Below the pieces are notes generated by a model. That model saw only the letters and a list, made by a program, of their open reading frames with translations. It did not search any database and was not told the origin of the DNA. Shown piece after piece: positions 7,879 through 62,561 of a DNA stretch of 64,000 nucleotides; position 1 is the stretch's first letter, and every line of letters starts with the position of its first letter. Source of the DNA: Eledone cirrhosa (lineage: Eukaryota); contig OZ024742.1 in NCBI GenBank assembly GCA_964016885.1, positions 286,130,001-286,194,000 on the forward strand, read 5' to 3'. The position numbers and the translations under genes are program-made.

Positions 7879-8899
7879 GAACTACGACGAGTCCACGCCA
7901 CGACTTTAGCTTTTAACAAACGCACGCAATTGCCGTCGCAGGTCGATGAACAAACAGAAGCACAATTTAGTATAGCTAGATCTAAACTTAGAAGTGTTAT
8001 AGAACAGTATAGCAAGAAGCATAATAGAATGGAGTCCCAGTAACTGGGAGAAAAATCTTTAAATGGCTTGCGTAAGCTCATGCAGCGCTCGCGTAATGGA
8101 GAGATTGCATGCTTTCCAACAGACAAGTCTGGCAGAATGTGGGTTGACAGTCTGTCAAACTACATCCAGGCAATGCAACCCCACATCACTAACACAAGAG
8201 AAGTAACACCACAAGAGCATGAAGATAGGGAGAAAACCCTCAATGCCCATATGATGATGTGGACAAACATAATGCAGCCCAATAAAAGGACTGCCAACAA
8301 CTTCCAGGCCTGGAACAATGACGTGCCAGCGTTGTATGGGCTTCGAAAAGACCATAAGACGAGCAGTGACCCTGTCGCAGGACCACCAACACCGCCAGTC
8401 TGTGGAGCTAACATTGCTAGTAACTACAGACTTTCATACTTCCTCTCCCTGATCATACGCCCCATCATTGAAATGTCCCCAGATATATGTGACAGCACGG
8501 TGGACCTCCTCAGCAGAATCAGCGAAAATAACCGATCTAGGGACCTAACAGACTGTATAATAGGTAGTATGGATGTTGTGTCCCTAGATCCATCCATTGA
8601 CGTGGATTTTGCTGTGAAGAAATGCGTAGAAATGATCAGTGAGAGCAATGTTGAATTCCGTGGGATTGATACCAGTGAGCTGGGACTCCTACTTAAACTT
8701 ATCTATAGTAATGATTATCTAGCTACATATGACCGTAGCAACCAATGCCCTACAAGACCAGCAAGAGGCAGACCACCTACCATTACCTCAATGGCCAAGA
8801 AAACCCACACAGATAGATGGAACGTGTGGACCAGAGCCATACGGACTCCCGAAAACCACGATGAACTAAAGAAAATGATTGCACATGCGGTGGGGCCAT
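7879..8899 (+). pseudogene. Penelope-like reverse transcriptase fragment (N-terminal half), ends at (TA)n
   Basis: ORF 8068 motifs FPTDKSGR, LYGLRKDHK, PVCGA, GSMDVVSLDPSI match PLE RT; no YxDD; ORF reads on into TA repeat. Confidence 0.85.
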
Positions 8900-8920
8900 A
8901 TATATATACATACATGTATG

Positions 8921-8973
<53 letters not shown>

Positions 8974-8979
<6 letters not shown>

Positions 8980-9300
8980 ATGATTTGGGAGGGTCATGTT
9001 GCCAATAAGAAACACACGCACCAGCTGCTTTCACTCCAATTTATTATAAATTAAATTTATAAATTTAAGAATTTATAAATTTCCGGTTGGTTGGTTGGTT
9101 CCATAACCGGACGATTGTTCATATATTGTCAAAGTTCTTTCGTCACACATTCTGTGACCTCTTCAGTGACTGGGGATTCTTTTCTTCGTTTTGTGCCTCT
9201 CCTTTCTTCTGTCCTACGCCATCTTGTTTTTGTGTGTGTTGTGTGCTGAGTTTACGCATGTGTTACATCCGAGTGTCTGTGTGTGTTTTTATTTATATAT
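8974..9300 (-). mobile_element. Penelope pseudo-LTR (family A), tail-less copy
   Basis: Direct repeat of 7583-7878. Confidence 0.85.
9128..9170 (-). ncRNA. Type I hammerhead ribozyme (family A)
   Basis: Minus strand GTCA CTGAAGA G GTCAC agaatgt GTGAC GAA AG aa CT T TGAC: stems I and II pair, minimal stem III. Confidence 0.8.
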
Positions 9301-16894: not shown

Positions 16895-17041
16895 TATATA
16901 TATAGGAATAATATTTTATTAGTATAGTAGTATTATTTTAATATATATATATATAATAGCTTTCACCGTATTTTTGACAAAAGAAATTTTAGCCTTATAA
17001 TGGGGTTTAGAACCCTCAGATAAATGGAAAAAGATGAGTAT

Positions 17042-17112
17042 TGACGTACATGAGAGTCGAACCCACATCTTTGGTTAACCAGACCACTGTGCTACCATTA
17101 CACCAACACATC
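17042..17112 (-). other. tRNA-like cloverleaf inside family T
   Basis: 71 nt; acceptor GATGTGT/GTACGTC+A, A-box TGGTGTAATGG, T-arm GGTTCGACTC; imperfect stems, so not called a functional tRNA. Confidence 0.7.
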
Positions 17113-17452
17113 ACCCATCTCCTTCCATTCAAATTAGAAGCTACATTCTTAGCGAGTATAAATGAAAAGTAAGTATGTTTTGAAACAGTGAGCAGGTTTG
17201 AAATTAGAAAATAGAATAGCTTTCACCGTATTTTTGACTAAAGAAATTTTAGCCTGATAATGGGATTTAGAACCCTCAGATAAATGGAAAAAGATGAGTA
17301 TTGATGTACATGGGAGTCGTTCTTTAGTAAAAAATACGGTGAAAGCTATTCTATTTTCTAATTTCAAACCTGCTCATTGTTTCAAAACATACTTACTTGT
17401 CATTTATACTTTCTAAGAATGTAGCTTCTAATTTGAATTGAAGGAGATGGGT

Positions 17453-17523
17453 GATGTGTTGGTGTACTGGTAGCACAATGGTCTGGATAACCAAAGATGT
17501 GGGTTCGACTCCAATGTACGTCA
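17453..17523 (+). other. tRNA-like cloverleaf inside family T (second copy)
   Basis: GATGTGTTGGTGTACTGGTAGCAC...GTGGGTTCGACTCCAATGTACGTCA. Confidence 0.7.
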
Positions 17524-17777
17524 ATACTCATCTGTTTCCATTTATCTGAGGGTTCTAAACCCCATTATCAGGCTAACATTTCTTTAGTCAAAAATACAGT
17601 GAAAGCTATTCTATTTTCTAATTTCAAACCTGCTCACTGTTTCAAAACATACTTACTTGTCATATATATATATATATATAGTATTTGCTAAAATAATCGA
17701 ATTAAATTAATTCAACAGTTAAACACACAAAGGAATAATAACGTTGTTACCAAAGTGCCAGAAGATTAACGAGTCTA

Positions 17778-18195
17778 CCCTAAATATTACTAATAGCTTT
17801 GATTTTGAAAGTAGGTTTATAATTATCAATTTTCATTACACTTTTGTAGCTATCTCTGTGGCCTAGTTGGAGAAACCATAGACGTTGGTGGTCCTGTATG
17901 AACTTCGATCCTGGTCGGGAGTAGGGTCCCAGTAAATTTTCAGTTTTTTTTCTATGGGTTGTGAAATAAAAACTGAAAAAGGTTACTACATGTACCTCTT
18001 GACCAGGATTGAACCCAATGAAATAAATCACTGCCAATACAGGAATTGAACTATCAAGACCGTAGAGGTATGTCATATATCAAATCATATATTTTATCTG
18101 ACGAGGAGTACTGAAAAAACAACACAGTACCTTCGAAATATATATAATAAAACATATATTTTGATTATGTGAATATCTTCATTTGTTAATATTAT
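17778..18195 (+). mobile_element. Non-coding element: tRNA-like Pol III cassette, then hammerhead (family B), then tail into (TA)n
   Basis: A-box 17859-17870, B-box 17904-17911; HHR 18092-18152 TTTTAT CTGACGA GGAGTACTG...CAGTACCTTC GAAA TATATATA ATAAAA. Confidence 0.75.
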
Positions 18196-19744: not shown

Positions 19745-19747
<3 letters not shown>

Positions 19748-19914
19748 GTCAATACGTATCTTTTTGTACGTCAATGTACGTCAATACTCATCTTTTTCCA
19801 TTTATCTGAGGGTTCTAAACCCCATTATCAGGCTAAAATTTCTTTAGTCAAAAATACGGTGAAAGCTATTCTATTTTCTAATTTCAAACCTGCTCACTGT
19901 TTCAAAACATATTT

Positions 19915-19919
<5 letters not shown>
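19745..19919 (+). mobile_element. Family T copy 5'-truncated at the tRNA 3' end, with stuttered 5' junction
   Basis: TACGTCAAT three times, then near identity to 17516-17657. Confidence 0.85.
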
Positions 19920-26618: not shown

Positions 26619-26929
26619 GATTCCATTTTAGATCCAGCCTTCTTCTCAGCAAGAAAGATGAACAAACCTGCCTTAACACTTAATTTTAAATCTTTAATTA
26701 TTAATTCATTTTTATTCTTTTTAATTGTAATATTCAACATTTGATAAGATGGATTTCACTGATACATCGAAACCGGTTATATTTTGTATATTTTATATAT
26801 ATTATAAAACTCTTTATAAAAAGAATTATCCCTCTCATTTTTTCAATAATGTCACTTTGACGAATCAAAAAAGAAATAAAGAAAAACAGATCCTTAAATA
26901 TATTTTCCGTGCTATTTCCAATTCCACCC

Positions 26930-28184
26930 GTAGCCGAGATGACATCGTCATCAAACCGGCGGACAAAGGAGGCGCCGTGGTGGTGTGGCGCGCGGACCTC
27001 TACACAGCCGAAGCCCTCAGGCAGCTCCGTAACCCCCTCTTCTACCGCCCTCTACCCTCCGATCCCACACCCCTCTACCAACAACAAGTTTCCTCCACCA
27101 TCCAACACCTTGTATCCCCCCCCCACCGCTTCCCACCTCATCGTACGCACACCCCACACCCACACCATCTACTTCCTCCCCAACTCCACAAACCCGACAA
27201 CCCCGGCCGCCCCATCGTCTCCGCTTGCAACTACCCCACCGAATTCATCTCCGCCTTTCTCGACTCCATCCTCGACCCCCTTGTCACCACCCTCCCCTCC
27301 CACATCTCCGACACCAACCACGCCCTGCGCCTTTTCGACTCCTTTACCTACCCACCCGGCCCACAGCCCATTCCTCTTCACCCTAGACATCAAGTCCATC
27401 TATACCGTCATCCCCCACGCCGACGGCCTACGCGCCCTCAAACACTATCTCGACCTTCGCCCCTCCCCCATCCCCTCCACACCCACCCACCTTCTCCTCG
27501 CCGAGCTGGTCCTCACCCTCAACTGTTTCTCCTTCTCGGGTGAGTTTTACCAACAGGTCACGGTGGTAGCCATGGGTACAAGAATGGGCCCAAACTATGC
27601 CAACCTTTTTGTTGGCCATGTTGAGGCCCAAATCTTTGCCCAGTACACCGGCCCCACGCCCGAACTGTACGGTCGTTACATCGACGACTGTATCGGAGCC
27701 ACGACCCTCACCCGAGAACAGCTCGACTCCTTTCTCTCCTTCTTCTGCTCCTTCCACCCCTCCCTCCACTTCACCACCTCTATCTCCACCACCCACGTCC
27801 ACTTCTTAGACATCTCCGTCGCCTTCGACTCCTCCCACCACTCCCTCGTCACCTCCGCCTTCTTCAAACCCACCGACTCCCACTCCTACCTCGACTTCAC
27901 CTCTTCCCACCCCACGTCCAGTCTGTCCGACTTACGTCGGACAGACTGGACGTCGCCTGGCGGACAGATTTACTGAGCACCTCCGGGATATTCGTCTCGG
28001 TGGTAGTTCCCCCATCGCCAGCCACTTTGGTGCCCCTGGACATTCCGCACACCACCTCACAGTCTGTGGCCTACTCCAATGCCACGGAACACCCGCCAAT
28101 CTCCTAAGAGTCGAACAACGGACCATCTTCACCCTACAGACCCACACTCCCCCCGGCCTGAACTCCCCACCCTTATTCCTTTAG
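26930..28184 (+). pseudogene. PLE RT-GIY-YIG polyprotein remnant with frameshifts
   Basis: IKPADKGGAVVVW, HKPDNPGRPIVS, TLDIKSIYTVIPH, AMGTRMGPNYANLF, RYIDDC, FLDI, KPTDSHSYLDFTSSHP; then YVGQTGRRLADRFTEH...PPGLN after a deletion near 27917. Confidence 0.92.
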
Positions 28185-35421: not shown

Positions 35422-38345
35422 GTCAACCTTGACAAAACCCATAGACAGGGACCCAGCTACTGGGAGCTGAACTTGTCGTTACCGACATGCAAAGCCTACA
35501 GTAGACGGATTAGCACTTTAGTTAAGCAGCACTTGACGGGGGCCATTGTCAACAAGAGATGGTGGTACTCTCTCAGGAGAGCAGTTAGATTAGACTAGAT
35601 AGGTTTTAGTAAAGAATTAGAGTTAGATAGAAATAAGACCGAAAAGGAACTGGTAGATAAAGTAGAAGAGGCACTTAGGAGTGGCAACGTAGCCAGCGTG
35701 CTAGCGACGAGAACGGCCTTGGACCAGTTCTTCGACGCAAAGCATGAAGGCTGCGTTGTCAGAAGCAAAATACGTGCTCTGGGAAACGAGGGAGTTAAAG
35801 CTGTTAGCTGGGCCCGAGTGACGGAGGCGAAAAGTGGCAACAAGTCCACGATTCGATCTTTGAAGGACCAAGACGGACGCGTGATACGTGAGCCGTAGCA
35901 AATGTGCGCGGCCTTTTAGTGGCACTTTGCTCAACTGTTCGGGCAGGGCGGCGCGCCGGGAGGGGCTATGGATTTCGGTCCATACCTCGACGGCCTACCG
36001 CGACTCTCTTCTGAGATAGGGGACGCGCTGAGCCAATGCGGCAAAGGCAAATCTCCTGGTCTCGACGGTCTACCCTACGAATTTTACGTAGCAATGCCGG
36101 ACTTGTTCTCCGGTCTCCTGGAAGCGGTCTACTGCAATTGGCAGCAGAACGGGAGAATTTCCAGTTCTGTGACCAAGGGCGTAGTCACGTTAGTCAGGAA
36201 AGACGAGAATAAGTGGGATGACATAGGCAACTTCCGGCCCATAACTCTGCTAAACACAGAGTTACAGATTTTGGCCAAGGTGTTGGCAAAGAGGCTGGCG
36301 CTTGTGGTAGAAAACCTGGTGGGAGAAGCGCAGACATGCGCAAAACCGACCAGGTCCATACACGACAACCTCCACCTCATGCGATACCTCATAGAGAGGG
36401 TAGGTGTAAACCCGGCTTCGGTGGGGCCCTGATCAACTTGGATCAGTCTAAGGCTTTCGATAGGGCTGACCATCGTTACCTGGATGCGGTGCTCGAGGCG
36501 GCAGGCTTCGCACCCGTGTTCAGGGACTGGATTGCTGCAATGCACAGCAGCAACATCTGCTCAAGGGTCAAGGTGAACGGCTACCTCTCGGAGCCGTTCC
36601 ATATCACGCGATCCATCCGACAGGGATGCCCTCTCTCCTCCCTTCTGTACGTACTGACTCTCGAGCCACTACTGCGGAAGTTGGAACTATTACAGGGCAT
36701 CCCTTTGGAACCGGGACTGCGAAAAGCGGCGTCAGTCTACGCCGACGACGTGACAGTAATGGTGTCGAGCACCTCGCAAATCGAGGAGGTCGGCATCTTA
36801 CTGGAGGAATGCGAAAGGTTCACAGGAGCGAAGCTGAACCGGGACAAATCCGTCGGTTTGCAACTCGGAACGTGGAGAGGCAAACCGATGCCTTCCGATG
36901 GCGTCGTCGGACGCCGGACGGAAGGACCGGTAAAGCTGCTCGGGGTCTGGTTTGGTCCTGACCTCCAGGTGGAGAAGAACTGGAACGAGGTGTCGACCAA
37001 TGTGTTTGCGCTCACCCAGAAGTGGGCCGAGTGCAAACTATCCTTGAAAGGTCGAGCGGTGGTGGCGAACACTTTTATAGCGTCCGTCATCTACTACCGC
37101 TTGACCGTCGTGCCTTGCCCAGCCAAAACGCTCACCAAAATGGAGCGCGCGCTCTTCCAATTCCTTTGGAAGAAACGGGCTCCTTTGGTGAAAAGATCTA
37201 TCTGCTGCCAACACCCTTCAAACGGAGGGCTGGGGATGACGTGGCTGACGATGCGCAAACACGCGCTCAGGCTGCGGCACCTCCACGTATTCCTCACCGG
37301 ACAACCGGTGTGGGCCCCGTTCGTGAGGCGAGCCTCACCACGACTCGTCTCGCTGACCGAACTGCAGTCCTGGGTCAAGCAAAGACCGAAGAAAATGGGC
37401 GACTGGCACATCGAATGTGCTCAGGCGCTCACAGTCCTCTGGCAAACGGACCCGGCGATCAGTGGAAACTCCACTTCGAAATTCTATAGAGAGTTGGTCC
37501 GCAGCAAGTGCGATGACGCGCTCGGAGAAACTCTGGGCGTAGAGGAGGACGAACTGGCCAGTCTGTCTGGTAGGACCTTCCGCCAGGGACCAATGGACAA
37601 CTTCCAAAAGTCCCTGGCCTGACAGTGCTACCGAGGAGCTCTACCAGTTCGAGACAAGCTCTACAGACACGGGCGCCCGGGTAGGGACTCTTCAAAAAAG
37701 ATCTGTCCGAGATGCGTGTGCGACGAGGAAACCGTCGCACACGCATTTGTACACTGCCCGGGCGTTACCGACCTGTGGGGCTATGTAGAACGACTATTGT
37801 CGCGGGTGGGACCAATCCAGTTGACCACCGAGTCCATTGTCATGATCAAACCGCTACCCTCCTTCAAAAACGAAGGAGCGGCGGTTTTCCTATGTGTTAT
37901 GGCTATGGTGAAAGAGGTTATATGGTGGACGAGGTTAAAATGGCTGAGGTCAGACACCTTTCTCTCAGGCGAGCAACTGATTCGTTTTTTCAAATATCAT
38001 TTTGGAAGAAGAATTTTATAAAAGGTGGGTGAATGTGGCAAAGATGGCCCGAGTGGTTGGGCGTTCTCTCTATATAAGCATGTAGGTTGAGGAAAAAGAG
38101 GAAGAGAAGAAGGGAGTACTCACTCTTGGTGCTCCTGTAGATGAGGGTTGTACATTTTTTCGGGGTGTGTACAACCCCTGTGTAACGCCTCCCCCCTATT
38201 AGGGATTTCAATTGTTATTTGTTGTTTTATTAATAGTTTTATTTTCATATACCTGTATGTAAACTCCCATTTGTATTTGTCCCCTTCTTTTGTGCCCTTG
38301 TGGCTAATAAAGAAATTTATCTATCTATCTATCTATCTATCTATC
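35422..38345 (+). mobile_element. Tx1/L1-clade LINE copy 1, 5'-truncated, disrupted ORF2
   Basis: KSPGLDGLP, FRPITLLN, LDQSKAFDR, QGCPLS, YADD, C-terminal CPRC..ETVAHAFVHC; stops and frameshifts; AATAAA 38306; (TATC)n tail. Confidence 0.95.
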
Positions 38346-40385: not shown

Positions 40386-43300
40386 TTGAGAGTTGGCTGT
40401 TTGAACGCGCGTGGCCTGGGCTCAGCTTGGAAGCAAGCAAAGCTTCTAAGTGACCTCAGGTCACAAAGTATAGATGTGATGGTTGTTTGCGAGAGTCGGA
40501 TCAGCAGCGTGAGACAGCTGGCGCCCGCCTTCGATGACTTTGAGATGCACGCATCTCTCTGTCAACCCGGAGGCGGGGGGGGGGGGGGGTTGCCGCAGTG
40601 CTGGATAAACGTCTGACTCTCGACGTACAGATTGTTCACTCGGGCCCGGGGGGTCGATTACTGGTGTTGGACGTCGCGTTCCCTGCTTTTAGTGGGGGAC
40701 TGGAATGGAATCCTAGATGCGCGTTGGGACTATGCAGGGGCATGTCCCGATAGAGGGGGGTGTAGCAGCCTCAAGGGGTTACTCGATCGATTCGACCTGG
40801 TCGATAGATTTCGACTAGATTGTTCAACTGCGCCAACCTGGACCTGGGCAAACCGCAGTGGACAATCTAGATCGTACCTAGATAGGTTTTTGGTTAGGAG
40901 TAAGGATAGGGACGTATTTAGTTGTCCAGAACTGATCATGGTTGGCTATTCAGATCACAAATTAGTGACCTGCGTGGTCAACCTTGATAGAACGCATAGA
41001 CAGGGTCCCGGTTACTGGAAGATGAACTTGTCCTTACCGACAAAGAAAGATTACAGAAACCGGATTAGTAGCTTAGTTAAGATGCGGTTGACGGGAGCGA
41101 TCGTCAACAGTAGGTGGTGGATATCTCTAAAGAGAGAGATTAGAGTAAGTTCGATAGGTTACAGTAAGGAACTAGCGGCGAATAGAAATAGGAGGGAAAG
41201 GGAGTTAACAGATAAACTAGAAGAGGCGATTAGGAGCGGAGACGTAGCCAGAGTGTTAGCGACGAGAACGGCATTGAGCCAGTTCTTTGACGCGAAGCAC
41301 GAAGGCTGCGTTGTCCGAAGTAAAATACGTGCTTTAGGAAACGAGGGGACCAAAGCTGTTAGCTGGGCCCGCGTGACAGAAGCCAAGAGTGGGATTAAAT
41401 CCACCATTCGGTCTTTGCGAGACCAGGATGGACGGGTGATCCTTGAACCTGAGCGAATGTGCGAGACCTTTCAAAGGCACTTTGCTCGACTGTTCGGAGG
41501 TGGCGGTGGGCCGGACGGGGATGTGAACTTCGGTCCATACCTCGACGGTCTACCGCGTCTTTCGAGCGGCGAAGCGGAATGCTGAGAAAGGCCAATCACA
41601 GCCACTGAAATCGGGGAAGCGCTCAGCCAATGCAGCAGACGCAAATCCCCGGGTCTCGATGGTCTACCATACGAACTTTATTTAGCTATGTCGGTCTTGT
41701 TCTCCGAACTCCTCGAGGCTGTCTATTGCAACTGGCAACAGAACGGGAGAATTCCCTGTTCTGTGACCAAGGGCGTGGTCACGCTAGTGAGGAAGGACGA
41801 GAGCAAGGGGGACGACTTAAGTAACTTTAGGCCCATAACTCTGCTGAATGCAGAGTTACAGATTTTGGCCAAGGTGTTGGCGAAGAGGTTGGCGCTTGTG
41901 GTGGGTGGTTTGGTGGGAGACGCGCAGACATGCGCTATCCCGTCCAGGTCCATTCACGACAACCTCCACCTCATGCGATACATCATAGAGAGGGTTGGCT
42001 ACGAACCCGGCTTTGGTGGGGCCCTGATCAACTTGGATCAATCTAAGGCGTTCGATAGGGTCGACCATGGTTACCTGGATGCGGTGCTAGCGGCGGCGGG
42101 CTTCGGACCCGTTTTCAGGGGCTGGATTTCTGCCATGCACAGTGGCAACATCTACTCTAGGATTAAAGTAAACGGCTATCTCTCGGAGCCGTTTCAAATC
42201 ACCCGATCCATCAGACAGGGGTGCCCCCTCTCCTCCCTTCTGTACGTATTGACTCTCGAGCCACTGCTGCGGAAGTTGGAGTTGCTGCGGGGCATACCCC
42301 TGGAACCGGGATTGCACAAAGCGGTCTCGGCCTATGCCGACGACGTAACAGTAATGGTGGCGGACGCCTCGGAAATCGGGGCGATCGCCACCCTACTGGA
42401 GGAATACGAAAGGCTGACGGGGGCTAAGCTGAACCAGGACAAGTCAGTCGGTTTGCAACTCGGAACGTGGAGGGGCAAACCGATGCCGTTAGACGGTGTC
42501 GTCGGGCGGTGGACGGAGGGCCCGGTGAAGCTGCTCGGGGTCTGGTTCGGACCGGACCTCCAGGTGGAGAAGAATTGGGGCGAGGTGACGAGCAGGGTGT
42601 TTGCGCTGACCCAGAAGTGGGCCAAGTGCAAACTATCACTGAAAGGTCGGGCGGAGGTGACGAACGCTTACATAGCGTCCGTCATCTACTACCGCCTGAC
42701 CGTCGTGCCTTGCCCCAAGGAAAAGCTCACCATCATGGAACGCATGCTCTTCCAGTTCCTCTGGAAGAAGCGGCCTCCCATGGTGAGGAGATCCATCTGC
42801 TGCCAGCACCCTTCGAAAGGAGGGCTGGGTATGCCGTGGCTGTTGATGCGTAGGCACGCATTGAGGCTACGGCATCTACAGGTATTTCTCAACGGTCAGC
42901 CGGTGTGGGCCCCGTTTGTGAGGCGAGCCTTCCCACAGCTCGTCTCGCTCACCGAACTGCAATCCTGGGTGAAGCAAAGACCGAGAAAACTGGGCAACTG
43001 GCACACCGAGTGTGCCCAGGCGCTCACGGCTATCTGGCAAGCGGACCCGACTGTCAGTGGAGAATCCACCTCGACATTCTATAGAGGGTTGGTGGCTAGC
43101 AGGGGCGACGACACCCTTGGAGAGTCGCTAGGCATGGAGGAGGACGAACTGGCCAGCCTGTTCGGTAGAACTTTCGGCCCGGGACCCATGGACAACTTCC
43201 AGAGGTCCCTAGCCTGGCAGTGTTACCGGGGGGCTCTGCCCGTTCGAGAAAAGCTCTACAGACACGGGCGCCCGGGCAGGGATCCCGCGAAAAAGATCTG

Positions 43301-43715
43301 TCCCAGATGCGTGCGCGACGAGGAAACCGTTGCGCATGCACTGGTACACTGCCCGGGCGTTGCCGATCTGTGGGGCTACGTCGAACGACTGCTGTCGCGT
43401 GTTGCGCCGATTCGATTAACCGCCGAGTCTGTGGTGAACATCAAGCCGCCTCCTCCCTTCAGAAATGAAGCAGAGGCGGTCTTTCTGTGCGTAATAGCCA
43501 TGATGAAAGAGGTTGTGTGGTGGACGCGCCTGAAAGGTCTGAGGTCGGGTGACTTTCTCTCCGGCCATCACCTGGTTTACTTCTTCCGATACCACTTCGG
43601 AAGAAGAATCAGGATGGAGAGAGAAGTGCTTGGTCCCAGACAGTTTTATGAAAGGTGGGTGAAAGAAGCGAGAATGGCCCGTGTAAATGGGCCTTCTCTC
43701 TACATTGTTCTGTAG
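40386..43715 (+). pseudogene. LINE ORF2: APE endonuclease, reverse transcriptase, C-terminal zinc finger
   Basis: CLNARGL, GDWN, SYLDRF, SDHKLV; YADD; CPRCVRDEETVAHALVHC; deletion in EN near 40676 and TGA at 41583; 675-aa RT part open. Confidence 0.93.
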
Positions 43716-44492
43716 GTGAAGAAGTGAAGAGGAAAGGGGGAGCGCCTCCTCTCTGGGCTTCCCCCGCGAAAAGAGTTGCACACTTTTCGGGGGTATGTGC
43801 AATCCCCAACACGCCCCCTCCCTTTTGAGGACTTTTTATTGTTATATTATTATTGTTATTCCTTTTTTCTTTACTCGATTTATGTAAACTCCCCCACTGT
43901 GTAAATGTCCCCTTCTTTTGTACCCTCGTGGCAAATAAATAGAAATTTATCTATCTATCTATCTATTTATCTATCTGTTACAAAGGAAATATATTGTACA
44001 ATATTAAGGCATAGTTCTGAAAGGGTCACGAAGACAAACATTTATATTTATATTTATTTATGCAAAAAAAATCTTGCTAAAATATAAAATATTCATGAAA
44101 TATGTTAAACAATAGGCATTATGGGTTCTACAACACGATATTATCTAAAACTGACGAATAATTCCGTTAAAAAAATAAATAAATAAACTGTTATTGATTT
44201 ACCCAAATATGGTGCGTTAAGGTAGGTGGGAAATGGTGGCTGTAGTATTTATTGATAGTTTATGTGGTGAAATTCTACATCTTATATATTTATTGTTGCT
44301 ACTTATGAAGTTTTGCCAAAAGGCGATTTTTGGTGGTGGTGGTGGTGGTGGTGATGGTGGTGGTGGTGTTGTGGTGGGGTGGGGATTCTGATAAATATAG
44401 TCTTATTGTAATCTTAACCCTAATTTCCTGAAGAGCAATTTTAAAGAGAAACACTAAATACTGAGGGCCTGACACGTTTGTATGTATGTATG

Positions 44493-49066: not shown

Positions 49067-49418
49067 CACAAGCAAATTATAAACGTAAACATGTAAGTAT
49101 GTTTTTGAAACGGTGCGCGAGTTTGAAATTAGAAATTAGAAAATATAAGCTTTCACCGTATTTTAGACTAAAGAAATTTCTAGCCTGATAGTGGGGTTTA
49201 TAACTCTCGGCGGAGAAAATGGAAAAAGATGAGTGTTGCCGTACATGTACGTCAATACTCATCTTTTTCCATTTCTCCGAGGGTTATAAACCCCACTATC
49301 AGGCTAGAAATTTCTTTAGTCTAAAATACGGTGAAAGGTTATAATTTCTAATTTCTAATTTCAAACTCGCGCACCGTTTCAAAAACATACTTACATGTTT
49401 ACGTTTATAATTTGCTTG

Positions 49419-50424: not shown

Positions 50425-50428
<4 letters not shown>

Positions 50429-50596
50429 TATTAGAAATGTAAGCTATCGCCGTATTTTGATTAAAGAAATTAAAGAAATTATTTAGCCTGATAGTGGGGT
50501 TAAGAACCCTCGGAGAAATGGAAAAAGATGAGTATTGACGTACGTCAATACATTTCTAATAATTTCAAACCCACTTGCTGTTTCGAAAATATTCTT

Positions 50597-50600
<4 letters not shown>
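50425..50600. mobile_element. Family T fold-back with internal deletion, centred on TATTGACGTACGTCAATA
   Basis: Homology to 49067-49419. Confidence 0.8.
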
Positions 50601-57941: not shown

Positions 57942-60900
57942 GCAGTAGTAGAGGTAGTGAGGTGGTGGTGATATAATTTGTTGTAGCTACTGTAGTAGTA
58001 GAGGTAGTGAGGTGGTGGTGATAGAATTTGTTGTAGCTACTGTAGTAGTAGAAGTAGTGAGGTGGTGATGATAGAATTTGTTGTAGCTACTGTAGTAGTA
58101 GAGGTAGTGAGGTGGTGGTGATAGAATTTGTTGTAGCTACTGTAGTAGTAGAGGTAGTGAGGTGGTGGTGATAGAATTTGTTGTAGCTACTGTAGTAGTA
58201 GAGGTAGTGAGGTGGTGGTGATAGAATTTGTTGTAGCTACTGTAGTAGTAGAAGTAGTGAGGTGGTGGTGATAGAATTTGTTGTAGCTACTGTAGTAGTA
58301 GAAGTAGTGAGGTGGTGGTGATAGAATTTGTTGTAGCTACTGTAGTAGTAGAGGTAGTGAGGTGGTGGTGATATAATTTGTTGTAGCTACTGTAGTAGTA
58401 GAGGTAGTGAGGTGGTGGTGATATAATTTGTTGTAGCTACTGTAGTAGTAGAGGTAGTGAGGTGGTGGTGATAGAATTTGTTGTAGCTACTGTAGTAGTA
58501 GAAGTAGTGAGGTGGTGGTGATAGAATTTGTTGTAGCTACTGTAGTAGTAGAGGTAGTGAGGTGGTGGTGATAGAATTTGTTGTAGCCACTGTAGTAGTA
58601 GAGGTAGTGAGGTGGTGGTGATAGAATTTGTTGTAGCTACTGTAGTAGTAGAAGTAGTGAGGTGGTGGTGATAGAATTTGTTGTAGCCACTGAAGTAGTA
58701 GAGGTAGTGAGGTGGTGGTGATAGAATTTGTTGTAGCTACTGTAGTAGTAGAGGTAGTGAGGTGGTGGTGATAGAATTTGGTGTAGCTACTGTAGTAGTA
58801 GAAGTAGTGAGGTGGTGGTGATAGAATTTGTTGTAGCCACTGTAGTAGTAGAGGTAGTGAGGTGGTGGTGATAGAATTTGTTGTAGCTACTGTAGTAGTA
58901 GAAGTAGTGAGGTGGTGGTGATAGAATTTGTTGTAGCTACTGTAGTAGTAGAAGTAGTGAGGTGGTGGTGATAGAATTTGTTGTAGCTACTGTAGTAGTA
59001 GAGGTAGTGAGGTGGTGGTGATATAATTTGTTGTAGCCACTGTAGTAGTAGAGGTAGTGAGGTGGTGGTGATATAATTTGTTGTAGCTACTGTAGTAGTA
59101 GAAGTAGTGAGGTGGTGGTGATAGAATTTGTTGTAGCTACTGTAGTAGTAGAAGTAGTGAGGTGGTGGTGATAGAATTTGTTGTAGCCACTGTAGTAGTA
59201 GAGGTAGTGAGGTGGTGGTGATAGAATTTGTTGTAGCTACTGTAGTAGTAGAAGTAGTGAGGTGGTGGTGATAGAATTTGTTGTAGCTACTGTAGTAGTA
59301 GAGGTAGTGAGGTGGTGGTGATAGAATTTGTTGTAGCCACTGTAGTAGTAGAGGTAGTGAGGTGGTGGTGATAGAATTTGTTGTAGCTACTGTAGTAGTA
59401 GAGGTAGTGAGGTGGTGGTGATAGAATTTGTTGTAGCCACTGTAGTAGTAGAGGTAGTGAGGTGGTGGCGATAGAATTTGTTGTAGCTACTGTAGTAGTA
59501 GAGGTAGTGAGGTGGTGGTGATAGAATTTGTTGTAGCCACTGTAGTAGTAGAGGTAGTGAGGTGGTGGTGATAGAATTTGTTGTAGCTACTGTAGTAGTA
59601 GAAGTAGTGAGGTGGTGGTGATAGAATTTGTTGTAGCTACTGTAGTAGTAGAGGTAGTGAGGTGGTGGTGATAGAATTTGTTGTAGCTACTGTAGTAGTA
59701 GAAGTAGTGAGGTGGTGGTGATAACATTTGTTGTAGCTACTGTAGTAGTAGAGGTAGTGAGGTGGTGGTGATAACATTTGTTGTAGCTACTGTAGTAGTA
59801 GAGGTAGTGAGGTGGTGGTGATAGAATTTGTTGTAGCTACTGTAGTAGTAGAAGTAGTGAGGTGGTGGTGATAACATTTGTTGTAGCTACTGTAGTAGTA
59901 GAGGTAGTGAGGTGGTGGTGATAGAATTTGTTGTAGCTACTGTAGTAGTAGAAGTAGTGAGGTGGTGGTGATAGAATTTGTTGTAGCTACTGTAGTAGTA
60001 GAGGTAGTGAGGTGGTGGTGATAGAATTTGTTGTAGCTACTGTAGTAGTAGAAGTAGTGAGGTGGTGGTGATAACATTTGTTGTAGCTACTGTAGTAGTA
60101 GAAGTAGTGAGGTGGTGGTGATAGAATTTGTTGTAGCTACTGTAGTAGTAGAGGTAGTGAGGTGGTGGTGATAGAATTTGTTGTAGCTACTGTAGTAGTA
60201 GAAGTAGTGAGGTGGTGGTGATAGAATTTGTTGTAGCTACTGTAGTAGTAGAAGTAGTGAGGTGGTGGTGATAGAATTTGTTGTAGCTACTGTAGTAGTA
60301 GAAGTAGTGAGGTGGTGGTGATAGAATTTGTTGTAGCTACTGTAGTAGTAGAAGTAGTGAGGTGGTGGTGATAGAATTTGTTGTAGCTACTGTAGTAGTA
60401 GAGGTAGTGAGGTGGTGGTGATAGAATTTGTTGTAGCTACTGTAGTAGTAGAGGTAGTGAGGTGGTGGTGGTGATAGAATTTGTTGTAGCTACTGTAGTA
60501 GTAGAAGTAGTGAGGTGGTGGTGATAGAATTTGTTGTAGCTACTGTAGTAGTAGAAGTAGTGAGGTGGTGGTGATAACATTTGTTGTAGCTACTGTAGTA
60601 GTAGAGGTAGTGAGGTGGTGGTGATAGAATTTGTTGTAGCTACTGTAGTAGTAGAAGTAGTGAGGTGGTGGTGATAGAATTTGTTGTAGCTACTGTAGTA
60701 GTAGAGGTAGTGAGGTGGTGGTGATAGAATTTGTTGTAGCTACTGTAGTAGTAGAAGTAGTGAGGTGGTGGTGATAGAATTTGTTGTAGCTACTGTAGTA
60801 GTAGAAGTAGTGAGGTGGTGGTGATAACATTTGTTGTAGCTACTGTAGTAGTAGAGGTAGTGAGGTGGTGGTGATAGAATTTGTTGTAGCTACTGTAGTA

Positions 60901-62561
60901 GTAGAAGTAGTGAGGTGGTGGTGATAGAATTTGTTGTAGCTACTGTAGTAGTAGAGGTAGTGAGGTGGTGGTGATAGAATTTGTTGTAGCTACTGTAGTA
61001 GTAGAAGTAGTGAGGTGGTGGTGATAGAATTTGTTGTAGCTACTGTAGTAGTAGAGGTAGTGAGGTGGTGGTGATAGAATTTGTTGTAGCTACTGTAGTA
61101 GTAGAAGTAGTGAGGTGGTGGTGATAGAATTTGTTGTAGCTACTGTAGTAGTAGAAGTAGTGAGGTGGTGGTGATAGAATTTGTTGTAGCTACTGTAGTA
61201 GTAGAGGTAGTGAGGTGGTGGTGATAGAATTTGTTGTAGCTACTGTAGTAGTAGAAGTAGTGAGGTGGTGGTGATAGAATTTGTTGTAGCTACTGTAGTA
61301 GTAGAAGTAGTGAGGTGGTGGTGATAGAATTTGTTGTAGCTACTGTAGTAGTAGAAGTAGTGAGGTGGTGGTGATAGAATTTGTTGTAGCCACTGTAGTA
61401 GTAGAGGTAGTGAGGTGGTGGTGATAGAATTTGTTGTAGCTACTGTAGTAGTAGAAGTAGTGAGGTGGTGGTGATAGAATTTGTTGTAGCTACTGTAGTA
61501 GTAGAAGTAGTGAGGTGGTGGTGATAGAATTTGTTGTAGCTACTGTAGTAGTAGAAGTAGTGAGGTGGTGGTGATAGAATTTGTTGTAGCTACTGTAGTA
61601 GTAGAAGTAGTGAGGTGGTGGTGATAGAATTTGTTGTAGCTACTGTAGTAGTAGAGGTAGTGAGGTGGTGGTGATAGAATTTGTTGTAGCTACTGTAGTA
61701 GTAGAGGTAGTGAGGTGGTGGTGATAGAATTTGTTGTAGCTACTGTAGTAGTAGAGGTAGTGAGGTGGTGGTGATAGAATTTGTTGTAGCTATTGTAGTA
61801 GTAGAGGTAGTGAGGTGGTGGTGATAGAATTTGTTGTAGCTACTGTAGTAGTAGAAGTAGTGAGGTGGTGGTGATAGAATTTGTTGTAGCTACTGTAGTA
61901 GTAGAAGTAGTGAGGTGGTGGTGATAGAATTTGTTGTAGCTACTGTAGTAGTAGAGGTAGTGAGGTGGTGGTGATAGAATTTGTTGTAGCTACTGTAGTA
62001 GTAGAAGTAGTGAGGTGGTGGTGATAACATTTGTTGTAGCTACTGTAGTAGTAGAGGTAGTGAGGTGGTGGTGATAGAATTTGTTGTAGCTACTGTAGTA
62101 GTAGAGGTAGTGAGGTGGTGGTGATAGAATTTGTTGTAGCTACTGTAGTAGTAGAGGTAGTGAGGTGGTGGTGATAACATTTGTTGTAGCTACTGTAGTA
62201 GTAGAAGTAGTGAGGTGGTGGTGATAACATTTGTTGTAGCTACTGTAGTAGTAGAGGTAGTGAGGTGGTGGTGATAGAATTTGTTGTAGCTACTGTAGTA
62301 GTAGAGGTAGTGAGGTGGTGGTGATAGAATTTGTTGTAGCTACTGTAGTAGTAGAGGTAGTGAGGTGGTGGTGATAACATTTGTTGTAGCTACTGTAGTA
62401 GTAGAGGTAGTGAGGTGGTGGTGATAACATTTGTTGTAGCTACTGTAGTAGTAGAGGTAGTGAGGTGGTGGTGATAGAATTTGTTGTAGCTACTGTAGTA
62501 GTAGAGGTAGTGAGGTGGTGGTGATAACATTTGTTGTAGCTACTGTAGTAGTAGAGGTAGT
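57942..62561. repeat. Homogeneous 50-bp tandem array, about 92 copies
   Basis: TGTAGTAGTAGA(G/A)GTAGTGAGGTGGTGGTGATAGAATTTGTTGTAGCTAC; one 3-bp GTG gain near 60470. Confidence 0.97.

Follow-up and report, generated by a model that had tools for sequence, protein, structure and literature searches.

A non-coding repeat of Eledone cirrhosa with an internal tRNA-like core and Penelope-type ends

We analyzed a stretch of 64,000 nucleotides of E. cirrhosa DNA (the window) and copies elsewhere in the genome of a repeat that forms an inverted block at 16955..17662. As judged from its sequence, the repeat is a real, non-autonomous element of the Penelope-like element (PLE) type that carries a selected tRNA mimic, in which no hammerhead was found, and that stands between SINEs and retrozymes. 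In our best explanation, this non-coding, tRNA-cored repeat is probably copied by a PLE reverse transcriptase (RT) from an RNA predicted to take the shape of a tRNA on a long stem. Such an element would widen the ways to parasitize a PLE, as it would do so without a ribozyme and without evidently resembling the sampled donors in sequence. It would also bear on the role of the hammerhead in PLEs and on what a PLE enzyme needs in trans, and a 260-nt template with two mapped start sites would be suited to the published in vitro PLE assay.

Structure of the inverted block and other copies in the window

The block consists of two inverted arms of a 260-bp unit. The left arm (16955..17319, minus strand) comprises unit positions 115-260 and 1-223, equal to 1.42 units, and the right arm (17320..17662, plus strand) comprises positions 189-260 and 1-271, equal to 1.32 units. 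These values agree with a first-pass annotation of the window, which had described inverted arms of 1.3-1.4 copies each set in (TA)n; TA tracts were present on both flanks (16941..16956 and 17662..17680). Unit numbering starts at window position 17392, and 5' ends are counted from the equivalent of tRNA residue A58 (17508). The left arm has a short 3' end without a tail at 16955, and its 5' end lies 2 bases upstream of the A58 of its second unit (position -2). The right arm is 5'-truncated at unit position 189 and has a tailed 3' end.

Each arm contains a tRNA-like cloverleaf that was recognized by ARAGORN and exceeded the Rfam gathering score for tRNA, which is 29. The left-arm cloverleaf, with A box and B box (17042..17112, minus strand), scored 45 bits against RF00005, and that of the right arm (17453..17523, plus strand), with the A58 equivalent at 17508 and the discriminator at 17523, scored 39.3 bits. 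Complementary flanks of 18 bp had been noticed around the tRNA-like domain, and sequence and folding placed them in a closing stem whose purine-rich 5' strand (17113..17130, minus strand) pairs with a pyrimidine-rich 3' strand (17022..17039, minus strand) that includes a T5 tract (17028-17032). The corresponding strands of the right arm (17435..17452 and 17526..17543, plus strand) have one substitution each, the second of which breaks the T tract. Further downstream, folds and alignment delimit a 3' body with two predicted short hairpins (17544..17613, plus strand) and a PLE-type tail (17614..17662, plus strand), which spans the interval between a short end at approximately 17614-17622 and the tailed end at 17662.

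Three other positions in the window had been assigned to diverged subfamilies. This holds for the inverted pair from 49067 (81-87% identity) and for the copy from 50425 (approximately 89%), but not for the copy from 19745, which belongs to the same subfamily as the block. The latter (19746..19918, plus strand; subfamily T1, 97% identity) is tailed, lies in (TA)n, and is truncated in the T-arm. The T2 inverted pair (49069..49418) has tails on both arms and a junction at the palindrome GTACATGTAC in the T-arm/acceptor region. The T3 copy (50427..50600, minus strand) is accompanied by a short inverted tail piece and is likewise truncated in the T-arm/acceptor region.

Conservation of the tRNA-like fold and its closing stem

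The tRNA-sense strand folded with a z-score of -3.29, and the opposite strand with -1.46; for the whole right-arm unit alone, the value was only -1.50. An additional outer pairing of AGAATGTAGCTTC with GAAAGCTATTCT, also proposed in the first-pass annotation, was not conserved: its energy was -8.5 kcal/mol in the subfamily of the window and -5.6 and -4.4 kcal/mol in two others, and it depends on a palindromic AGCT within a direct repeat.

Covariation was scored in 33 junction-free copies picked by hand from 123 distinct spans. Paired cells made up 81.0% in these copies, compared with 76.9% after shuffling and 40-56% after sliding. Cells changed on both sides numbered 80 versus 41 in shuffles (0/500 shuffles reached 80), although relatedness among the copies inflates these numbers, and the pairs having a both-side change showed no excess (16 versus 16.5). 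RNAalifold gave no consensus structure on the decayed copies. When the majority strings of seven subfamilies were compared in hand-set registers, pairing was kept in 251 of 266 cells; each T4 string was derived from 7-14 decayed copies. Nine of 38 positions were compensatory (closing stem 3, acceptor 4, anticodon stem 2); the independent events behind these changes are few, and most of them separate the young group (T1-T3) from the old one (T4). Covariation had been suggested as a check on the closing stem, and the three compensatory positions found there among the seven subfamilies bear the stem out.

A decoding tRNA gene has a conserved anticodon loop with U33 and a purine at 37. The loop of the present element drifts among subfamilies, with C or G at position 33 in four of seven and T at position 37 in four of seven, and a decoding tRNA is therefore ruled out. 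The covariation shows at the DNA level, and by extension suggests for the RNA, that the fold and not the anticodon is very likely under selection. The shape of the RNA probably matters, because a promoter alone would not need these pairs. In the copying cycle that we propose, the tRNA-sense RNA would, in all likelihood, fold as a cloverleaf on a stem of 17-18 bp. As for a source tRNA, the best identity among 19 tRNA-like sequences compared was 36-42 of 72 positions, and none was identified as the source.

Two classes of 3' ends and PLE-type mobilization

The 3' ends were read from the first 100 listed 15-mer matches on contig C1, which were not selected by 5' extent; the sample left out 10 duplicate loci and two near-identical neighbours of locus L155 and comprised 98 matches at 69 loci. 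Short ends were found in 37 matches and tailed ends in 50, with none between; 6/98 ran on into the next unit and 5/98 were unclassed. The two classes lie approximately 40-65 nt apart, and the tail called in L155 denotes a short end followed by a CT run. L155, L156, and L157 are near-identical insertions approximately 17 kb apart, probably from a local segmental triplication. Among opposite-strand pairs with both arms classed, 18 of 19 combined one short and one tailed end, the exception being the window copy at 49069 with its two tails. (TA)n was reached by 87 of the 98 matches, in one case through an intervening CT run. The 5' ends varied within (TA)n, and a target duplication was not discernible. 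The longest head-to-tail tandem array had 4.2 units. Apart from the target, neither poly(A) nor a tail of simple repeats was seen.

A PLE enzyme is described as cutting both strands and starting at two internal sites, whose spacing gives the tail, a signature termed unique to PLEs (Frangieh 2024, PMC11167929). Partial tandems, inverted truncated copies, the tail, and (TA)n targets are listed among PLE features (Craig 2021, PMC8557442). The tail of the present element is approximately 40-65 nt, compared with 30-40 nt published for PLEs. Because the 3'-end, inverted-arm, tandem, and (TA)n features match these descriptions, we infer PLE-type mobilization from the anatomy of the ends and the published mechanism with high confidence. 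The first-pass annotation had supposed a non-autonomous element mobilized by a PLE, and the two 3' ends, inverted arms, tandems, and TA targets are all present as this would predict. By the published mechanism, a PLE protein would almost certainly nick both (TA)n strands and start two cDNAs 40-65 nt apart, which would leave one short and one tailed arm.

In a tRNA SINE, the tRNA part forms the 5' head. SINEs of octopus were reportedly described by Ohshima and Okada in 1994. A short, tRNA-related sequence with intact A and B boxes and many copies would be accounted for by an ordinary tRNA SINE that a TA-targeting LINE mobilizes and in which tandems and inversions came about later. Published tRNA SINEs likewise are <700 bp, tRNA-related, and of high copy number, have A and B boxes, and depend on a partner LINE (PMC3531059). 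However, the tRNA of the present element lies inside a circularly permuted tandem unit, as had been annotated: 53 of the 65 arms with an A box continued upstream into the tail of the previous unit, and 12/65 ended near the tRNA 5' end. The ends are of PLE type and not of LINE type, with the 3' end fixed at two sites, which are divided between the arms of an inverted pair, and with no poly(A) or simple-repeat tail besides the target; moreover, the fold is conserved together with its closing stem. We regard a SINE origin as extremely improbable.

A candidate partner among Hydra-type PLEs

PLE-B, a Hydra-type family found at L170:2040-5035 and in L032-L060, is the best candidate donor of the enzyme, an assignment that we make tentatively and at slightly less than an even chance. 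Its 560-amino-acid frame folds like retron and telomerase RTs, and its relatives at E up to 1e-20 number 942. Sequence searches of Pfam and PDB gave the frame no name. The motifs DKT, CxCX5C, CxxC, and CxH match the description of the Hydra clade, for which (TA)n targeting is also reported (Craig 2021, PMC8557442), and the clade was assigned by motif and not by tree. PLE-B copies also end within (TA)n in a short or a tailed form of their own, the tail being approximately 80 nt. Its 3' region of approximately 1.3 kb contains a short tandem repeat, and near the 3' end, a hammerhead-like fold was seen by eye, with no canonical CTGANGA and no match to the hammerhead descriptor.

Locus L170 shows, in order, (TA)n, a truncated RT-endonuclease frame, a 3' region, 1.9 units, and (TA)n; that is, a 5'-truncated coding element is fused head-to-tail to units in one TA-flanked block. 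Three direct head-to-tail fusions of the unit with PLE-B-family ends were found, and in L197 and L251, the unit lies upstream of the PLE-B-like end. Three other direct joins were to other repeats. Across a TA gap, too, no neighbour was as frequent as PLE-B-like ends (27), so the three fusions may reflect no more than abundance.

The copy in L170, downstream of a PLE reading frame, is what would be expected if the unit were the pseudo-LTR of a coding PLE, a possibility raised in the first-pass annotation. Only 1 of 40 scored PLE-B copies joins the unit, the others having their own 3' ends, and upstream of full units lies another unit instead of a reading frame. When 69 Hydra-type PLE loci, which represent three or four of many PLE families, were searched with a 3'-half profile, no PLE terminus matched; the one strong match was a separate copy across a TA run. 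Among the PLEs sampled, a pseudo-LTR origin is very improbable.

At least two further Hydra-like families were found in L378-L407, with many uninterrupted frames of 714-719 amino acids, and a third, with frames up to 789 amino acids, stood lower in the list. Because uninterrupted Hydra-like frames are many, young PLE enzymes are likely available in the genome. Two other PLE-like RT fragments were recognized by motif in the window (8044-9054 and 26731-27976), the second with a weak RVT_1 match (E 1e-5).

Truncation of 5' ends in the T-arm

A stop in the T-arm was the dominant feature of the element and had been missed in the earlier annotation. The 5' ends were read by hand, through CpG-type mismatches, and TA-only matches and six short or 3'-broken arms were excluded. 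Within a 12-nt zone that was picked after the data were seen, between A58-1 and A58+10, ends were found in 50 of the 80 arms reaching the T-arm, compared with 60/943 in all other 12-nt bins (6% per 12 nt). The edge at A58-1 was sharp, with 0/30 ends in the next 12 nt upstream. Counting one arm per insertion gave 33/57, and subfamily T3 gave 18/41.

The peak of 5' ends was at A58+5/+6 and not at +1; only 6/110 arms ended at -1 to +3. At +5/+6, CATG allows arm-arm annealing or AT matches the target, and the T stem's three G-C pairs have their base at the same site. In copies that read through, A58 was substituted in 7/212, which is within the range for other A positions, and misincorporation at A58 was not above background.

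The modification m1A, a typical mark of tRNA position 58, halts RT one base to its 3' side (PMC4787781). The sharp upstream edge agrees with such an arrest, but the scarcity of ends at +1, the end of the window's left arm at -2, the lack of excess substitution at A58, and the mode at the base of the T stem speak against it. The pile of ends suggests m1A58 or a T-arm block to reverse transcription, and the chances that the block is m1A58, as opposed to structure or protein, are about evenly balanced. A purely structural or protein-caused stop (T-arm hairpin, tRNA elbow, or bound protein) without modification, with the remainder of our explanation unchanged, is a serious possibility that falls somewhat short of an even chance. 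A structural stall also fits because the mode of the 5' ends marks the base of the T-stem G-C pairs, and the lack of misincorporation at A58 agrees with it. However, the RT hazard was only 0.08 over the 18-bp closing stem and acceptor strand just before the T-arm, and a structural block does not readily account for the abrupt upstream edge.

Approximately 60% of the arms that reach the T-arm end there. In the cycle that we propose, the block would be m1A58 made by host tRNA enzymes, and the ends would then be cut back to the closest microhomology, which is CATG between arms and AT with the target, a step that we hold to be as probable as its opposite. If the block is m1A58, the genome would preserve, in this pile, a trace of an RNA modification, and host tRNA enzymes would be limiting a retroelement.

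Transcription, processing, and the copied template

The A and B boxes are intact, and a T5-T7 tract lies a few bases past the tRNA, as part of the closing stem, in all seven subfamilies (7/7). Such a T run normally acts as a Pol III terminator, and full-length transcripts therefore need read-through or another polymerase. As the first step of the cycle, Pol III would probably transcribe a tandem copy from the intact boxes and leak through the tract into the following unit. At the end of the cycle, the minority of copies that pass the T-arm would produce, from a template that is multimeric or closed on itself, full units and tandem arrays, which would then serve as the next source copies.

Twelve of the 65 A-box arms ended near the tRNA 5' end, at -49 to -61, a 3.5-fold excess (p 0.002); in T3, this applied to 9/18 arms. 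These ends are spread and confounded by arm-arm microhomology, and the diffuse excess could reflect either initiation by Pol III or cleavage by RNase P. Junctions lacking the tRNA, as excision and re-ligation would leave, gave one match versus one control match, and no pile of 5' ends was seen at the RNase Z site. A single 36-nt arm (L087:1617-1652) has its 3' end exactly on the discriminator, as an RNase Z product would.

Tandem neighbours shared rare variants in 11/44 pairs versus 32/3000 random pairs, and the divergence between units of one array was 5.5%, versus 4.1% between the two arms of one insertion. The likeness of neighbouring units is compatible with one template copied repeatedly and is no proof of a circle.

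An alternative for the same PLE-mobilized element is that the tRNA mimic acts as an RNase P/Z signal. Transcripts made by host Pol II, or multimeric ones, would be cleaved one time in each unit, the closing stem would hold the ends together, and a ligase would join them into a 260-nt circle for repeated copying. A fold selected beyond the needs of a promoter and a T5-T7 tract that is awkward for Pol III would be explained in this way, as would the 12/65 arms ending within 6 nt of the tRNA 5' end, at 3.5 times the rate further upstream, and the array units that differ about as little as arms do; retrozyme circles provide a precedent (PMC7229834). However, the ends are spread from -49 to -61 with no pile on G1, many of them are arm-arm junctions with microhomology, no pile stood at the RNase Z site, and tRNA-less copies did not exceed the control. 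In vitro, moreover, a PLE is reported to use mainly unprocessed RNA (PMC11167929). We consider this alternative unlikely. A still broader proposal is a retroelement class of its own, the PLE equivalent of a SINE or retrozyme, in which the place of the hammerhead is taken by a host-modified tRNA mimic: host tRNA enzymes would methylate A58 and cut each unit once, the closing stem would permit ligation into a 260-nt circle, and a Hydra-type PLE enzyme would copy the circle into tandem arrays. This proposal is improbable as a whole; if true, an RT stop would be fossilized in thousands of genomic copies. Pol III transcription followed by PLE copying of the folded RNA is the reading that we prefer.

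Relation to known elements

The absence of a CUGANGA core, reported in the first-pass annotation, was seen again: CTGANGA was absent from both strands of four natural arrays, which represent three subfamilies. A hammerhead descriptor gave 0 matches in the four arrays, but it is strict and was also blank on PLE-B, so divergent cores could be missed. Its positive control was a canonical type I hammerhead in a TA-flanked insert of the window (18060-18170, match at 18097). Rfam reported no ribozyme family at E<=10. Matches to miRNA families were below gathering scores, reflect the inverted arms, and were rejected.

Retrozymes are described as non-coding, non-autonomous tandem units of 170-400 nt and as proposed riders of PLEs (PMC7229834), and the present element, with its units of 260-290 bp, is alike; animal non-LTR retrozymes were also compared through Li, Clavereau & Pollet 2026 (10.64898/2026.07.22.740005). 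Retrozymes have a type I hammerhead in each unit, whereas in the present element none was found and a covarying tRNA cloverleaf is seen instead. It also differs in that no similarity to a PLE pseudo-LTR was found in the families sampled. Expression of retrozymes yields both linear and circular monomers, whereas our element is known here from DNA.

MRC1 of Chlamydomonas shares with the present element pseudo-LTR-like partial tandems, head-to-tail multicopies, and microsatellite targets, and its clade, the Chlamys elements, is mostly without hammerheads (Craig 2021, PMC8557442). According to the same source, non-autonomous Chlamys PLEs generally share their 3' end with an autonomous family; no such sharing was found here in the 69 Hydra-type loci. 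The sole mention of "tRNA" in the main text of that paper concerns selenocysteine. Hydra-clade PLEs are described as coding and hammerhead-bearing, and our element is neither, although (TA)n targeting is common to both.

Helenus/TRIMp3 (PMC10886601) is also non-autonomous, uses no LINE, and has a tRNA-like sequence inside its terminal repeat, a trait that it shares with the present element. However, Helenus is described as having LTRs, a primer-binding site, and 5-bp target duplications and as depending on Gypsy or Copia, whereas in our element the 3' end takes either of two forms and the 5' end varies within (TA)n. By this analogy, the element would be the PLE counterpart of Helenus. A literature search, which did not extend to Repbase, Dfam, or the Craig 2021 supplements, revealed no description of a PLE passenger with a tRNA; those supplements might contain one.

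Subfamilies, abundance, and other repeats

Searching with diverged copies recovered seven subfamilies (T1, T1b, T2, T3, and the old T4a-c), which reach down to approximately 75-80% identity. Genome-wide, a 15-mer of the 3' body had 5,272 exact matches (control 7) and an A-box 18-mer had 1,323 (control 0). Twenty evenly spaced 10-kb stretches of the 3.0-Gb genome contained 3 loci, corresponding, with a very wide margin, to approximately 45,000. Three contig sets from one sample contained the element, with loose ends at both 3'-end classes. The element is long-lived and abundant, and its copies would inflate tRNA gene counts for this genome.

A second, unrelated repeat (L410 and L412-L420) contains an internal tRNA-like gene scoring 52-71 bits and accounts for 10 of the 16 top tRNA matches. 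Its anticodon varies among copies (GAC, AGC, GGC, GGT, and GTC). It has a fixed left end approximately 310 nt upstream, usually by TA, and resembles a non-autonomous DNA transposon. The window also includes two LINE-like copies (35422-38317 and 40977-43947) that are 78% identical and have endonuclease-like and RT-like frames, and a tandem array of a 50-bp repeat (57944-62561) with 92 copies at 97% identity.
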